64,000 nt of DNA. Source: Candidatus Poribacteria bacterium (lineage in GTDB: Bacteria > Poribacteria > WGA-4E > PCPOR2b). Made by a program: the position numbers and the translations under genes. The DNA is taken from the NCBI GenBank assembly GCA_965215015.1, contig OZ244042.1, positions 1,536,001-1,600,000 of the forward strand, in the 5' to 3' direction. This document shows, in pieces, positions 50,986 to 56,922 of the stretch. Each line of letters starts with the position of its first letter. Positions within the stretch are counted from its first letter, which is position 1. The notes below the pieces were generated by a model. It was not told the origin of the DNA, searched no databases, and was given only the letters and a program-made list of their open reading frames with translations.

Positions 50986-51486
50986 TCAAAACAAAATGTG
51001 AACGAGCGGTAAGACAAATTGATCCGGTTCATCGGGGGCCCAATCATTCTGTCCGATATCTCGGATCGGCGGCCGCCGTGGAGGAGTTATACGTTGTGGC
51101 GAAGTAGGAATCAGCTCTTCCGAAGGATTTTTGTCATGCGTGTGCAGCCAATCCCACAAACCAATAAGGAAGGCTAACGATACCGCAGAGGCACCGATAA
51201 TCCTGAAATCTGTAGTGGAGAGCTCGGGTGCAAACTCATTTTGTCGAATCATTTGGATACCACGCACGCCTACATAGCTATGAATTGCTGTAAATGGTAG
51301 GGCAGTGAAGGTAATAATCTCAAAGCGACGCAATGCGCTTTCGTGGTAGACCTCTTCCTCTTGCTGACGAACGGGCGGCGTCTCCGCCTCCGAACCTTCC
51401 TGATATTGGGCCAAAACATTGGTCGTAATAATTGCGGTTAAAATCAGAACGACAAGTAATCTAATTTTCGATCTGTTTCGCTTCAT
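50986..51486 (-). CDS. Hypothetical membrane protein with signal peptide
   Basis: Overlaps the lspA stop; signal peptide and two hydrophobic segments. Confidence 0.65.
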   Translation of the reverse strand: MKRNRSKIRLLVVLILTAIITTNVLAQYQEGSEAETPPVRQQEEEVYHESALRRFEIITFTALPFTAIHSYVGVRGIQMIRQNEFAPELSTTDFRIIGASAVSLAFLIGLWDWLHTHDKNPSEELIPTSPQRITPPRRPPIRDIGQNDWAPDEPDQFVLPLVHILF

Positions 51487-51961
51487 CGTAATCTCCTCGA
51501 TGATGAAATAGGTAAATCATCAACAGGCCAGCACCGATACAGACAGCGGTATCGGCAATATTGAAAGTGGGCCACCAGAGGCCGGGCAGTCGAAATTGGA
51601 TAAAATCTGTGACCTCCCCAAGGCGAATACGGTCAATAAAGTTACCGAGGGCACCCCCAAGCAGGAAGCTGAGTGCGACCTTCATCCATGTGCTTTCGTG
51701 GAATTGCCTGTAATAGTAGGCAATGAACCCCATTGCAACAATCGAGATGAGGACTAGCGGCACGCTGTGCCCCGTCATCAGTCCAAATGCGGCACCGTCA
51801 TTCGTGTCATGGCGGAGGTTGAATATGCCCTGAATGATTACACGTTGACCATGATATGGGATATGTTGTTGAACCAACCACTTGGTGAATTGATCCACCA
51901 ATAATACAGGCAAAGCAATACCGACTAGAGGTAAAATTAATTTTAGTAGTTTTCTCTGCAT
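51461..51961 (-). CDS. lspA: Lipoprotein signal peptidase II
   Basis: DQFTK, NDGAAFG, GGALGNFIDR, VTDF and FNIAD motifs. Confidence 0.95.
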   Translation of the reverse strand: MQRKLLKLILPLVGIALPVLLVDQFTKWLVQQHIPYHGQRVIIQGIFNLRHDTNDGAAFGLMTGHSVPLVLISIVAMGFIAYYYRQFHESTWMKVALSFLLGGALGNFIDRIRLGEVTDFIQFRLPGLWWPTFNIADTAVCIGAGLLMIYLFHHRGDYDEAKQIEN

Positions 51962-51984
51962 TGGAAATGTCCTTGTATATTATG

Positions 51985-52450
51985 ATAACCTAAGTTGCTA
52001 GTTGATAAACCCGCTCGGCTTGGATAGACATATCTAAGCCATAAATACCCGGACTAAGCGCAATGTCCCGGGCCGATTGAGCCATGATTATCGCCCTATA
52101 ATGTCTGGTATTCTGTCGCGCAATGTGCTAGATATCTCGTGCAGTGGATTTGTCAAGCCTATGCGAGTTGCCTAATCCAATACCTGTAGGTCAAGACTCA
52201 TATCTCGACACAAGCCCGTTGATTTTAGAAAATTGACAGACAGAAGTCTGCAACCGTCTCAAATGGCTCTGAATCCCAATTTTATCGGGGAGGAGCGCGT
52301 AGATAGTAGCACAGGGCCTGCTCTTGATGAAATCGGGGTTTCCTAACCTACCAGCTACAGGTTGGAAACCTGTGCTACGATTGGATTGTAATTGTCAGGT
52401 GGTAACTTGAGTGGAGATTCCATGGATATCCAACTAGCAACTTGCGTTAT
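51985..52450. mobile_element. Family D composite element enclosing a family B repeat
   Basis: Inverted ends ATAACCTAAGTTGCTAGTTG ... CAACTAGCAACTTGCGTTAT. Confidence 0.7.
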
Positions 52451-52507
52451 GATAATAGACAGTGCTCAGTCAAAATTCGCCGCCGTTTTATTTCCATATT
52501 TCAAAAT

Positions 52508-54922
52508 TTACTCGTAACTCGTTACCTTTTGACCTATCCATTCCTCTAGCGATTGTGTCCAGTGTCCGTCCGCATCAGTCAGGTGAGAAAAGCGAACATG
52601 GGACATCCAATTTTTCAAAAAAATGCTCGACAACTCCGATTCATCGTGATGTTGGGTGTAATCCGGAGGTGAAGTAGGAGTTTCTTGCATTCGGATTAAG
52701 GCGTAGGTTTGTTCGGAAAAAAAAGGAATGATTGGCGCAAACCGTTGTATCAAGACATATAAAATCGCTGATAGTACTGTTTGGCGCGCCCTCTTTTCTA
52801 GCCCTGTTTCCAACGCATTGCAGTGGTCATCGAAGAATGGTTGAAGATTTGATTGGCAAAAGTTCCTTAGCAGATACCACACCTGATAAAAATCGCGGTC
52901 CTGATAGGCGAGGTCTACGGATTGCAACACTTTGGCGGTAGCGGACAATATCTGTGTATCCGATTTTGATATTGGCTCCAGAAGAGAGGCATGGGGGTCA
53001 AAATCCTCAAGATAACTCAATATCGTGGAGTACAGTTTTTGGATGGCGTTATATTCATGTTGACACTGTTGCAGGTGCATCTCCATTGATGACGGATTCA
53101 GATTGGGTTGCAGGCAGAGCAAGCGCAGTACATCCTTTGGATATTCCTCCATCCAGCTTTGGTTGACATCAACGGACTGGACATTTGAATAATCTCCTGT
53201 CAACTCCACATTCAACGGGGGCGCATCGGAGATAGCAATCGAAGTTAAAACAAACTGAGCAAACCATCTATGAAATTGATTCGAGTAAAAGAAGTAAACA
53301 TTAATCGGCTGAACATTATTTCCTTTGACTTCGAGATTGTTGATCGCGTTGAGCAGAACCGCAAAGCGTCCATCGAGGGTTGTAAATTCTTTCCGAAACT
53401 CTTTTCCATCACAGTTATGGCATAAGGTATTCGGAGGTAACAAATCTTCAGTATCTAACTTAAACCAGCTATCGGCTCCGCGACGACCGATTAAAGCACG
53501 AATGGCTTTGACAATTCGACCGTCGGAAAGCTCTCCCCCACATTTTTGGCACTGAAAAATAGGAATCGGAGTCCCCCAACCTCGGTGGCATGAAACAGAT
53601 GGAGGCGGAAGCTCTCGGACCGTTTGCTGTATCCAATCTCTATCTTTAGAGCTATAGTGTGTCAAACGTTCATCTGAACAAATGACACGCTTCCTCAATT
53701 GATTGTTGTCCAAGGAGAAAATCCATTGTTGAATAGGCCGAAACAAGGCAAGTGTATCACACATCCAACAGTGGGGTTGGTGCACATCCTCAGATCCTGC
53801 TGATATTAGATAGCCCCGTTTCTCTAGTTCAAAGGCAATGAACTTCCCCGCGTCGGAAACTTCAAGTCCACAAAACTGCTCGGAATCCTCTGTTAAACGG
53901 CCCGCATCATCAATAACTGATGTAATTGGAAATTGCAGGACTTGAGCGATTTGATAATCATAAGAACGGTGACCTGGGGTAAGAGGCCTTACCCCGGGCG
54001 GTGGTTGAGACATCATCTCCTCGCTCAATGCACTATCATGTTGAGAAAGATCCGGGATAACGACTACCGGTAGGGCTGTGCCTAGAAATGGATGGGCACA
54101 AATACAATCCGTCAGTACCTCAGCTGAACAGGTTTGTAATAGATTTAAGCTTGCCTGATGGTCTGGCGGAAAGCGAGTCGAGAGATCTTCGTCAGCAAGC
54201 AGGAGGATTTCACCACCTAACTCAGCAATCCAATATTTACTATCTGCCTGTAACCCAATGGCAACACTTCCAGCAAGATACCATAGATCTTGAAGCCATG
54301 CGAGCAGGTAAACGTCCTCGCCAAACTCTTCTAAGCCGATGCTGATGGGAAATTTGACGTATCCCGAATATGCCGGAGAGGGGTGAATTTTCATCTCATC
54401 CGCATCTAATACGGTATTACATTTCGGACACCAAGCCCCCAATTTTTGATCTTTATTTAAATAACCCGACTCTTGCAATGTACTAAAAGCATTGATAATC
54501 TTCGCTTCATCGCGTGAATCTAGACTTTTGCCTTTTTTCCAATCTCCAAAGATTCCAAGTGCCTGTAGTTGATTTTGCTGTTGTTCAACCTCGCGCTGGA
54601 ACTCACGTCGACACTGGCGGCGAAATCGGAGCGCATCAAAGGTGCCATCTTTATACTCACGATTCAAAGCCTTTGTTTCAACATCAGAAGTATAATAATT
54701 CCAATGCGGCACATACTTCACACCTAGTCCCTGCATCATGTTGACTTTAAGAAAAATGTCCTGATAGATTTTTCCTTTAAGCATATCCAACTTCAGGTGA
54801 TGGGTAGCTGTAGGCATTTCTCGAAGGATGTAGGGTGCCGATTCCGCCCGTTGAGTCAGTCGGGCATAGATATCAATATCAGCCCATAGTTCCAAGATTT
54901 TTTCTTCAGTCCTCATTTTCAA
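52508..54922 (-). CDS. Isoleucyl-tRNA synthetase-like protein with degenerate catalytic motifs
   Basis: Co-linear with IleRS (LGIFGDW, WCPKC.T.L, YVKFP, HPF, HCW.C, RGWGTPIP.F.C..C, APIIPFFSE), but HIGH and KMSKS are absent; lies upstream of lspA. Confidence 0.85.
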   Translation of the reverse strand: MKMRTEEKILELWADIDIYARLTQRAESAPYILREMPTATHHLKLDMLKGKIYQDIFLKVNMMQGLGVKYVPHWNYYTSDVETKALNREYKDGTFDALRFRRQCRREFQREVEQQQNQLQALGIFGDWKKGKSLDSRDEAKIINAFSTLQESGYLNKDQKLGAWCPKCNTVLDADEMKIHPSPAYSGYVKFPISIGLEEFGEDVYLLAWLQDLWYLAGSVAIGLQADSKYWIAELGGEILLLADEDLSTRFPPDHQASLNLLQTCSAEVLTDCICAHPFLGTALPVVVIPDLSQHDSALSEEMMSQPPPGVRPLTPGHRSYDYQIAQVLQFPITSVIDDAGRLTEDSEQFCGLEVSDAGKFIAFELEKRGYLISAGSEDVHQPHCWMCDTLALFRPIQQWIFSLDNNQLRKRVICSDERLTHYSSKDRDWIQQTVRELPPPSVSCHRGWGTPIPIFQCQKCGGELSDGRIVKAIRALIGRRGADSWFKLDTEDLLPPNTLCHNCDGKEFRKEFTTLDGRFAVLLNAINNLEVKGNNVQPINVYFFYSNQFHRWFAQFVLTSIAISDAPPLNVELTGDYSNVQSVDVNQSWMEEYPKDVLRLLCLQPNLNPSSMEMHLQQCQHEYNAIQKLYSTILSYLEDFDPHASLLEPISKSDTQILSATAKVLQSVDLAYQDRDFYQVWYLLRNFCQSNLQPFFDDHCNALETGLEKRARQTVLSAILYVLIQRFAPIIPFFSEQTYALIRMQETPTSPPDYTQHHDESELSSIFLKNWMSHVRFSHLTDADGHWTQSLEEWIGQKVTSYE

Positions 54923-55281: not shown

Positions 55282-56097
55282 TCAATTTGCAAGTTCTTCA
55301 GCACGTTGTGTCGCGGCACTTACGGCATCAGCGATAATCGCGCGTAGGCGTCCACTTTCCAACGCATATAGTCCCGCTGCTGTTGTTCCCCCCGGTGTCG
55401 TCACTCGGTTTTTGAGCACCGCCGGATGTTCGTCTGTATCCTCAAGCATTTTGCACGCTCCGAGCACAGTTTGTAGAGCCAGTTGATATGCGTCGGGACG
55501 GATCAGTCCGACCTGTACCCCCGCATCGGTAAAGGCTTCAATGAATAGGAACACAAAAGCGGGGCCGCTACCGCTTAAACCGGTAACGGCGTTCAGATGT
55601 CTCTCCTCCATAACTAGCGACTTACCCGCAGCGTTGAAAATTGCTTGCGTTATAGCGAGGTGCTCAGCTGTGGCTGCACTTCCCGCCGCTATCGCGGAGA
55701 TTGCTTCTCCTACAGATGCTGCAATGTTTGGCATCACACGGACAATTGGCGGTGGCGGAGAGGTGAAGTAAGATTCTAATTGGGCTGTCGAGACACCAGC
55801 TGCAATGGAGATAATCCACTGGGACCGAGATTGGAGGGTAGCAGCAATCTCTGGGAAGATATCTGGCACGTTATTCGGCTTGGCTGCATATAGCATAAAG
55901 TCCACATTTTCTACCAGTTGCGGGATGTTTTCTGCACTGTTGACTCTTAACTCCTCGCACAGTTGGTCAACAAGAGGGCGATAGACATCTGTTATCCAAA
56001 CCTGTTCAGGCGGCAATAAATCATGCACAACGCTTTTGACAATCGCCCCTCCCATATTGCCAACGGCGATAAAACCGACTCGAAGTGTTGTATCCAA
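55282..56097 (-). CDS. proC: Pyrroline-5-carboxylate reductase
   Basis: GNMG, ISIAAGV, RVMPN, TGLSGSGPA and VTTPGGTT motifs; TTG start after GGAGGAG. Confidence 0.9.
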   Translation of the reverse strand: MDTTLRVGFIAVGNMGGAIVKSVVHDLLPPEQVWITDVYRPLVDQLCEELRVNSAENIPQLVENVDFMLYAAKPNNVPDIFPEIAATLQSRSQWIISIAAGVSTAQLESYFTSPPPPIVRVMPNIAASVGEAISAIAAGSAATAEHLAITQAIFNAAGKSLVMEERHLNAVTGLSGSGPAFVFLFIEAFTDAGVQVGLIRPDAYQLALQTVLGACKMLEDTDEHPAVLKNRVTTPGGTTAAGLYALESGRLRAIIADAVSAATQRAEELAN

Positions 56098-56101
56098 AGT
56101 G

Positions 56102-56821
56102 CTATGCTCCTCCCAATCTGATCGGGACCTTTTCTGCTCGCTCTCCAAAGATTGCTGTGCCAACCCTAATGAGATTTGCACCTTCCTCAATGGCAACCTC
56201 AAAATCATTGGTCATTCCCATTGACAGGTTATCCATCTCAACGTTCGGAAACTGCTGGGCGATGATCTTCTCTCGGAGTTGCCGCAGCAATACAAACATC
56301 GGACGCACCGCTTCCGGGTCTGGCAGAAAGGCCCCGATTGTCATCAGTCCTTTGATTCGGACATGGGTGTAAGGGTGTGCACTTTCAATGAAGTTTAGCG
56401 TCTGATCCGGTTCCAGACCGTATTTGCTGGGTTCAGCGGAGGTGTTGACTTGAATCAGTACCTCTGTCGCGCGATTCAACCCAGCAGAGCGTCGATCGAT
56501 TTCAGCAAGGAGGCGAGGACTATCCACGGAGTGGATGAGATCAAAAATCTGTAAGGCTTGTTTCACTTTGTTCCGTTGCAAATGGCCAACTAGATGCCAC
56601 TTCACAGGATGGTCAATCTGGGGGTATTTACCTTGTGCCTCTTGGACGCGATTTTCACCGATGTCTGTAATTCCTGCGTCAATTGCCTCTACAATTAGGC
56701 TGACAGGCTTGGTTTTAGATACAGCAACGAGCCCTATTGAAGCTGGGTCGCGTCCAGCACGTGCGGCAGCCGCAGCAATCCGATCTTGAATCCGTGCAAG
56801 ATTTTCGCGAATAGAAGCCAT
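56102..56821 (-). CDS. yggS: PLP homeostasis protein YggS
   Basis: LVAVSKT, GENRVQE, GHLQRNK, LSMGMTNDF and RVGTAIFG motifs. Confidence 0.95.
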   Translation of the reverse strand: MASIRENLARIQDRIAAAAARAGRDPASIGLVAVSKTKPVSLIVEAIDAGITDIGENRVQEAQGKYPQIDHPVKWHLVGHLQRNKVKQALQIFDLIHSVDSPRLLAEIDRRSAGLNRATEVLIQVNTSAEPSKYGLEPDQTLNFIESAHPYTHVRIKGLMTIGAFLPDPEAVRPMFVLLRQLREKIIAQQFPNVEMDNLSMGMTNDFEVAIEEGANLIRVGTAIFGERAEKVPIRLGGA

Positions 56822-56922
56822 TGTCTTCCTCCCACAAAAGCAAATTAACAGAGATGTGCGAAACCAGTAAATAATAGCATATTTCAAGAAGCAATTGCAA
56901 GCGCAACCTGTCGGTCAGTGTT

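Follow-up and report, generated by a model that had tools for sequence, protein, structure and literature searches.

Whether an isoleucyl-tRNA synthetase (IleRS) gene that has lost every catalytic motif is a decaying pseudogene, an enzyme of altered chemistry, or a protein retained for some purpose other than catalysis is the question raised by an open reading frame of an uncultured Candidatus Poribacteria bacterium. The frame occupies positions 52508 to 54922 (minus strand) of the window analyzed here, a stretch of 64,000 nucleotides from contig OZ244042.1 of assembly GCA_965215015.1 (positions 1,536,001 to 1,600,000 of the forward strand), and lies upstream of lspA. The interpretation favored, at a probability of about 0.82, is that the gene is a selected, non-catalytic relic of a type-1 IleRS (IleRS1) that acts by binding and was displaced by a type-2 enzyme (IleRS2). 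The gene is best described as a pseudoenzyme, its catalytic inactivity being predicted, and not as a decaying pseudogene, because loss of the motifs is accompanied by a separate IleRS2, by purifying selection and by widespread retention.

The original prediction described an uninterrupted frame of 804 residues, co-linear with IleRS, and both the frame listing and alignment to the closest solved relative, the IleRS1 of Priestia megaterium (8c9e; E 4e-63, query residues 5-742 against chain residues 23-769), bear this out. The coding sequence itself is probably 52508-54916 (802 amino acids), because the ATG at residue 3 (window position 54916) is kept in all 19 same-genus sequences and the upstream TTG is not. 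The frame and its parts are as follows.

52508..54922, minus strand: IleRS1-derived pseudoenzyme, whole open frame; 804 amino acids from TTG, single and uninterrupted
54428..54922, minus strand: N-terminal half of the Rossmann (HUP) catalytic fold, residues 1-165, holding the dead HIGH and GWDxHG sites
54782..54793, minus strand: dead HxGH position, codons 44-47, K-L-D-M (K44 to M47), from the 8c9e alignment and motif tables
53768..54427, minus strand: CP1/editing domain, residues 166-385; WLQDLWY replaces the Thr-rich peptide, and the ratio of nonsynonymous to synonymous substitution (dN/dS, or omega) is 0.24-0.32 in residues 211-330
53303..53767, minus strand: second zinc-site region, residues 386-540, with C458/C461 and C501/C504 and invariant columns
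53153..53200, minus strand: approximate site of the deleted KMSKS loop (about residues 575-590), from the gap against 8c9e and motif tables
52688..53002, minus strand: anticodon-binding helical bundle, residues 641-745, with QRFAPIIPF; Pfam Anticodon_1, 36 bits
52508..52687, minus strand: short, poorly conserved C-terminal tail of low predicted confidence, without CxxC, and the stop codon

Membership in the class I tRNA ligase superfamily is indicated by matches above the gathering thresholds to Pfam tRNA-synt_1 (PF00133, 104.2 bits against a cut-off of 22.7) and Anticodon_1 (PF08264, 36 bits against 25.1), and by an IleRS-like predicted fold. An AlphaFold2 model built from a 34-sequence alignment has a mean predicted local confidence (pLDDT) of 82.1 and a predicted TM score (pTM) of 0.79, with low confidence restricted to a loop (residues 294-300) and to the tail (748-759 and 777-802, the tail falling below 50). 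The structure modeling proposed earlier thus returned an IleRS-like fold: Foldseek searches of the Protein Data Bank place IleRS1 structures first (8c9f, 8c9e, 1qu2; E 1e-41 to 6e-39, probability 1.00), over alignments of roughly 800 columns with TM scores of 0.57-0.62, and IleRS2 and valyl-tRNA synthetase (ValRS) rank next. A search of the ESM Atlas returned only generic class I synthetase clusters. The protein nevertheless scores just 254.7 bits against the NCBIfam ileS equivalog model TIGR00392, far below its cut-off of 621.4. Public labels for Poribacteria copies are "isoleucyl-tRNA synthetase" (IMG) and "class I tRNA ligase family protein" (NCBI).

HIGH and KMSKS serve adenylate formation, and the Thr-rich peptide of the CP1 domain serves editing. 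Residue-by-residue alignments confirmed every motif substitution listed in the original prediction: relative to canonical IleRS1, PPYANG..HxGH has become PTATHHLKLDM (8c9e alignment and motif tables), GWDCHGLP has become HWNYYTSD, the editing peptide WTTTPWT has become WLQDLWY, DVWFDSG has become DGRFAVL, and EGSDQHRGWF has become YSNQFHRWF, a motif of which the family keeps only the terminal Trp/Phe. The KMSKS loop is deleted in the 8c9e alignment, and the pattern K[MFIL]S[KR]S occurs nowhere in the protein. HxGH, the first His of which stabilizes the transition state according to a preprint (10.1101/2023.01.31.526100), is absent from all 34 orthologs examined and from all seven sequences of more distant Poribacteria families. 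Similarly, when the editing site is taken as the Thr-rich WTTTPWT peptide, an Asn and the element GTGxVHxAPGHGxxD, what is kept amounts to LW, the His of PGH and, in some family members, the Asp.

Other features that the original prediction had listed as retained are indeed present, namely the CxxC pairs CPKC, CWMC, CQKC and CHNC, the PGH..DY element and QRFAPIIPF, which contains the APIIPF of the anticodon bundle. The CP1/editing domain, in which a new conserved motif, VKFPxxxGxEEFG, is found, is bracketed by the first zinc site (C165/C168 and C385/C388). Residues 1-165 are the most constrained part of the protein (sliding-window dN/dS 0.09-0.12), with REMP and QDIFLK conserved. Residues 386-540, where DGRFAVL stands in place of DxWFDSG, carry a conserved RRGxDxWF...LLP subdomain and the family-specific, newly conserved residues R475, R481, F487 and P496. 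The anticodon bundle retains 0.90 of the canonical level of conservation; the KMSKS/stem-contact region shows the greatest loss, at 0.52 of that level. The C-terminal zinc-binding domain of IleRS1, of about 120 residues, is missing, because the protein ends some 60 residues past the anticodon bundle and its last 170 residues contain no CxxC; the short tail thus occupies the place of the IleRS1 junction and zinc-binding domains. In quantitative terms, the 131 columns conserved among 51 canonical IleRS1 comprise 36 that hold the same residue in the dead family (14 sequences in this comparison, one of them an unintended inclusion from the Poribacteria family labeled f10), 6 that have switched and 89 that are unconserved, and a further 17 columns are newly conserved.

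The original prediction placed the true IleRS elsewhere in the genome. A second IleRS was indeed located there when the genome, a single contig of 5.94 Mb, was scanned with TIGR00392: besides LeuRS-like and MetRS-like frames, the scan returned three IleRS-like frames, namely the one under study (252.7 bits, below the cut-off), one of 890 residues that scores best as a ValRS-type relative, and one of 1122 residues at G000:C1:3255448-3258804 that scores 677.8 bits, above the cut-off. The frame under study is consequently not the only IleRS of this organism. The product of the third (1119 amino acids) has type-2 IleRS as its best solved relatives (8c8w, E 1e-202) and carries GVHH at the HxGH position, an intact WTTTPWT and xMHKS at the KMSKS position, motifs that vary little or not at all across 21 genomes. 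At E <= 1e-120, 164 of the 176 Poribacteria genomes carry an IleRS2, as do 130 of the 133 high-quality ones. According to the preprint cited above, G/AXHH is a natural, active variant of IleRS2 that confers hyper-resistance to mupirocin, so that the GVHH of this working enzyme is a motif linked to that trait; by the same account, a swap to GXHH abolishes IleRS1 activity and no natural IleRS1 bearing it was found (10.1101/2023.01.31.526100).

Several observations concern IleRS2 itself. Every IleRS2 examined carries GVHH. The enzymes of families f1 and f3 form an unusual subtype, with GFDCQGLW for GWDTHGLP, ESFPGQFRNWF for E(G/A)IDQTRGWF, NPWLDAG for DCWFDSG and xMHKS for KMSKS, and share just 44-47% identity with the IleRS2 enzymes examined from f2, f4 and f5, which keep the canonical motifs. 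Such subtypes suggest either gene replacement or rapid change of an essential enzyme within the phylum. The xMHKS form is also found in two otherwise canonical IleRS1 (P0057 and P0060).

The claim that the dead copy has diverged under selection is well supported. Within the genus, dN/dS (Nei-Gojobori) has a median of 0.196 and a range of 0.146-0.305 over 171 pairs, and for three pairs the 95% intervals from a codon bootstrap lie between 0.14 and 0.27. Over the same 136 pairs from 17 genomes, the dead copy yields 0.196 and IleRS2 0.051, and the dN of the dead copy is 3.0 times that of IleRS2. Computed in 16-17 loci, dN/dS is 0.055 for AP_endo2, 0.075 for proC, 0.098 for yggS, 0.105 for lspA, 0.114 for def, 0.151 for yggT, 0.166 for fmt and 0.206 for orf166, a 166-residue frame downstream of lspA; the dead copy, at 0.193 in this comparison, falls within the range of its functional neighbors. 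Constraint is strongest in residues 1-210 and 300-390 (0.09-0.13) and weakest in the editing core (0.24-0.32) and at the C-terminus (up to 0.38). Across 34 sequences of 29-81% identity, 57 columns are invariant, and of the eight zinc cysteines six are invariant and the remaining two conserved in at least 90%. The signs by which a pseudoenzyme is recognized operationally, motif loss, an omega of 0.19 and an IleRS2 above the cut-off, are therefore all found.

Orthologs are widespread and intact, and in neither respect do they behave as frameshifted or neutrally evolving sequences. Among the window's own genome and 40 near relatives, 35 of 41 have an ortholog, and all 34 loci examined hold one open frame of 735-896 residues, even though about 5.1% of single-base changes in the frame would create a stop codon and synonymous sites among orthologs are saturated beyond the family level. 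One ortholog (G015) is split solely by the ends of a circular record, and stops flagged in the genome scans fall beyond the frame ends, as the intact frame of the window's own genome shows. A profile scan of 176 Poribacteria genomes gave 154 matches at E <= 1e-50. By family, and excluding the window's own genome, matches were found in 24 of 28 genomes of f1 (none of the four of genus g5), 111 of 112 of f2, 6 of 7 of f4, 0 of 11 of f3, 2 of 3 of f5, 7 of 8 of f8, the single genome of f9 and both of f10; those in f5, f8, f9 and f10 are weaker than in the other families. In the seven outer-family sequences, drawn from f8, f9 and f10, every catalytic motif is missing. A search for related loci found 78; the record titles name Candidatus or uncultured Poribacteria in 75 and "uncultured bacterium" in three.

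In the clades that lack the gene, f3 and genus g5, yggT is followed directly by lspA in all four loci examined, and tblastn at E <= 1e-3 detected no trace of the gene in those four. The gene is dispensable and was cleanly deleted in two clades. The order in which parts of the enzyme were lost can also be glimpsed: the C-terminal CxxC...CxxC domain is retained only in the f10 relatives (G041, P0017) and in P0011, and the f10 editing peptide, WIGTPWT, is the nearest to canonical. Because f10 has no catalytic motifs and still has this domain, the comparison suggests that the catalytic motifs went first and the C-terminal zinc domain later. As to additions, f2 orthologs (loci L034-L039) bear an N-terminal extension of about 45 residues rich in Lys/Arg, Ser and Thr, with 12-14 Lys plus Arg in the first 50 residues in five of the six sequences shown, and in members of genus g13 the anticodon bundle additionally contains a Lys-rich insertion (GKWKERKGKKRMEDWKNG in L037, for instance).

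A quick FastTree built on a fast alignment of 91 rows, with one row longer than 1100 residues left out, contains a branch of 100% local support that divides all 20 Poribacteria rows and nine other fully degenerate metagenomic rows from 51 canonical IleRS1 and 11 partly degenerate ones. This topology fits a single origin of the fully degenerate sequences.

Separately from these, a second kind of degenerate IleRS1, of about 930 residues, has lost HIGH and KMSKS, and most of its members keep GWDxHG, DVWFDSG and EGxDQxRGWF (P0022, P0027, P0032, P0035, P0042, P0044, P0046, P0065, P0069, P0078, P0090 and P0100). Eight of them form a clade of their own (98% local support) inside canonical IleRS1, and the named members are annotated as "isoleucine--tRNA ligase" of Armatimonadota and Bacillota. 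Dead or half-dead IleRS1 copies may thus be commoner than has been recognized. Two very long IleRS1-like proteins, P0029 (1441 residues) and P0094 (1469 residues), have partly degenerate motifs (IHVGI/RMARA and THVGI/TMSKL) and may be fusions.

The genomic setting is that of an ancestral ileS-lspA locus, as originally proposed. The dead copy belongs to a co-directional string consisting of a yggS-like gene, proC, yggT, the dead ileS, lspA, orf166, def and fmt, of which the following flank it most closely.

56102-56887, minus strand: yggS-like gene, upstream; Pfam match
55282-56208, minus strand: proC, upstream; Pfam match, listed frame of 308 residues
54985-55281, minus strand: yggT, upstream; Pfam match
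51962..52507, no strand: gap of 546 bp between the pseudoenzyme gene and lspA, with short dispersed repeats
51461..51961, minus strand: lspA (signal peptidase II), downstream; Pfam Peptidase_A8, E 4e-42
50986-51486, minus strand: orf166, overlapping the end of lspA; no Pfam match

Among 85 loci, lspA on the same strand downstream together with proC upstream is found in 82, the misses being loci cut short, and synteny of the upstream genes (yggT, proC, yggS-like) holds in 77-82. Distances between the dead-ileS stop codon and the beginning of lspA center on a median of 28 nucleotides and do not exceed 60 in 67 of 77 loci, and in many f2 genomes the two genes overlap by 5 nucleotides. Because these distances are short or negative, co-transcription and translational coupling with lspA are likely. 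The 546-bp gap is peculiar to the window's genome and consists of repeats that match 52 other stretches of the chromosome. Its repeat modules measure about 50-100 nucleotides, with matches that include C1:1554472 and C1:1546627 within the span of the window, and the gap has imperfect terminal inverted repeats. A permissive Rfam scan of 48-58 kb (E <= 1) gave no match, neither a T-box nor any other leader; between 50.5 and 57.2 kb, promoter-like sites (9 against 9.5 expected) and terminator-like sites (8 against 6.5) occur at chance level and were not used. Two further observations concern neighboring genes. The proC frame overlaps the yggS-like frame by 107 nucleotides and tblastn matches of relatives mostly start near residue 37-38, so that translation of proC probably begins some 36 codons inside the listed frame. 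The orf166 frame is conserved, following lspA in 79 of 85 Poribacteria loci, and its product combines a signal-like N-terminus with a hydrophobic segment.

Could the gene simply be a leftover IleRS1 that drifts neutrally and has merely not yet acquired a stop codon? The disappearance of all catalytic motifs, a dN three times that of IleRS2 and the deletion of the gene in two clades without visible consequence are what decay would produce. Decay would not, on the other hand, leave 34 of 34 orthologs open across families between which synonymous sites are saturated, given the rate at which single-base changes create stop codons, nor would it leave an omega inside the range of functional neighbors, 57 invariant columns at about 30% identity or a confidently predicted fold. 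This explanation is refuted by the selection data, and its remaining probability is negligible. An alternative that accounts for the open frame, but not for the protein, is that translation of the gene serves to deliver ribosomes to a coupled lspA, the product itself being without a role. The lspA-proximal stop codons and the many 5-nucleotide overlaps are in keeping with such a spacer. Coupling, however, requires an open frame alone and neither a fold, nor zinc cysteines, nor an omega of 0.19 over 800 codons; moreover, 546 bp of repeats part the two genes in the window's genome, and the deletion clades keep lspA directly after yggT. It is regarded as very unlikely.

Slightly less improbable, though still quite unlikely, is that the protein remains an enzyme that uses non-canonical residues to aminoacylate or edit tRNA-Ile or to transfer Ile in the manner of SbzA, an IleRS homolog with other chemistry (PMC9437257). 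In favor of this, the protein retains the fold, the zinc sites and, in the editing domain, the PGH..D(Y) element, and 17 family-specific columns are newly conserved, but HIGH, KMSKS, the context of the GWD aspartate, DQ..GW and the Thr-rich peptide are all lost, the residues that replace them differ between families, conservation within the protein is lowest in the KMSKS region, and the locus offers no biosynthetic-cluster context; furthermore, according to the preprint cited above, IleRS1 does not tolerate even the HxGH-to-GxHH swap (10.1101/2023.01.31.526100). One further proposal is that the active IleRS2 depends on the dead copy as its partner or regulator. Pseudoenzymes often regulate, or activate, their active paralogs, and the two genes co-occur in most of the phylum; IleRS enzymes are monomers, however, and the genes lie 1.7 Mb apart. 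Nor does presence of the dead copy track the IleRS2 subtype, since f1 combines the divergent IleRS2 with a dead copy, f3 has the same IleRS2 and no dead copy, and f2 and f4 pair a canonical IleRS2 with a dead copy. Little probability is accordingly left to this proposal.

The reading of the gene as a selected binding protein has weaknesses of its own. Purifying selection constrains the dead copy three to four times less than it does IleRS2, and the absence of the gene from f3 and g5 marks it as dispensable. Long-branch attraction could pull degenerate sequences together in a quick FastTree. The listing of sequencing runs places the stretch in four DNA/contig runs of one study and in no RNA run. 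Against tRNA binding of the canonical kind stand the loss of the C-terminal zinc domain in the window's order, the poor conservation of the KMSKS/stem-contact region, and the strong acidity of the protein, with an isoelectric point of 5.18 and a net charge of -30 (-30 to -51 within the genus).

With these points taken into account, the selected-relic interpretation runs as follows. The gene is the ancestral IleRS1 of the ileS-lspA locus, made redundant because tRNA-Ile of Poribacteria would be charged by the GVHH-bearing IleRS2. The redundant copy has lost its aminoacylation site (HIGH, KMSKS and the amino-acid and ATP contacts) and its editing site and, in the window's order, the C-terminal zinc domain as well. 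What remains is a folded protein with two zinc sites, which purifying selection has preserved in most of the phylum, almost certainly co-transcribed and often translationally coupled with lspA, and presumably acting by binding instead of catalysis. Its function is accessory, because two clades have deleted the gene cleanly.

As for what is bound, a residual role related to tRNA or other RNA, exercised through the anticodon bundle and the zinc-knuckle surfaces, is tentatively placed first; conservation of the bundle and the Lys/Arg-rich N-terminal tails of f2 point in this direction, and there is a precedent in LeuRS paralogs that have kept tRNA binding (PMC9437257). A protein partner, with the pseudoenzyme as scaffold or regulator, is a possible second candidate, and the remaining probability is assigned to ligands of some other nature. 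Two more specific ideas were considered and rejected: that of a HisZ-like Ile sensor, as the residues of the pocket vary among family members, and that of an inhibitor decoy, as the whole mupirocin/adenylate pocket has been replaced.

A broader and rather doubtful proposal is that of an unrecognized, phylum-wide, IleRS1-derived pseudoenzyme family whose scaffold of zinc knuckles and anticodon bundle was recruited, after the IleRS2 takeover, for a new macromolecule-binding job. If this were true, a binding activity expressed together with lspA, for instance one that senses or sequesters tRNA-Ile, another RNA or a protein, could adjust functions of the envelope or of translation. Recruitment of this kind may have occurred more than once. 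An independent IleRS1-like clade without HIGH and KMSKS is present in other phyla, its named members being from Armatimonadota and Bacillota. For annotation, the family matters in that metabolic reconstructions of these uncultured bacteria from sponge and marine habitats can mistake a dead enzyme for an IleRS or arrive at a wrong number of gene duplications. In evolutionary terms, the locus offers a clean natural example of the fate of a displaced essential enzyme, in which the catalytic motifs appear to go first, phylum-wide, followed by the anticodon-reading zinc domain, with the fold long kept at ileS-lspA. It also provides a defined protein in which a new binding function can be sought. 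No description of a dead IleRS1 or of the Poribacteria protein was found in the literature, although supplements of published papers may include such sequences; in a 2026 IleRS preprint the words pseudogene, inactive, truncated, paralog and Poribacteria are all absent.

Non-charging synthetase paralogs are already known, HisZ, LeuRS-I and SbzA among them (PMC9437257), and the pseudoenzyme described here would add a bacterial class Ia case to this short list. Its closest likeness is to IleRS1 itself (TIGR00392; 8c9e, 1ffy/1qu2), with which it shares the order of Rossmann fold, CP1/editing domain and anticodon bundle, the internal zinc knuckles and a location before lspA, and which is its best match in both sequence (E 4e-63) and structure (E 1e-41). 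It differs from IleRS1 in lacking HIGH, KMSKS, the amino-acid and ATP contacts, the editing threonines and the C-terminal zinc domain. HisZ, the HisRS-like regulatory subunit of ATP phosphoribosyltransferase, is a class II protein that keeps its amino-acid pocket and has HisG as its partner. Like the pseudoenzyme in the interpretation favored here, HisZ is a non-charging synthetase paralog that acts through binding (listed in PMC9437257), whereas the pseudoenzyme has neither a conserved ligand pocket nor a known partner. SbzA, of altemicidin/SB-203207 biosynthesis, is similarly an IleRS-derived paralog that works outside translation, but it is an enzyme that uses Ile-tRNA and is encoded in a biosynthetic cluster (PMC9437257), whereas the dead copy sits among housekeeping genes and is without conserved catalytic residues. 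LeuRS-I of the Sulfolobaceae, finally, is likewise a full-length, non-charging class Ia duplicate that exists beside an active copy, and its disrupted CP1 domain, divergent C-terminus and unknown role invite the same comparison (PMC9437257). LeuRS-I, however, still makes leucyl-adenylate and binds tRNA-Leu (PMC9437257), whereas in the Poribacteria protein the adenylation motifs are gone, and the lineage of the pseudoenzyme is bacterial with IleRS1 as its parent.

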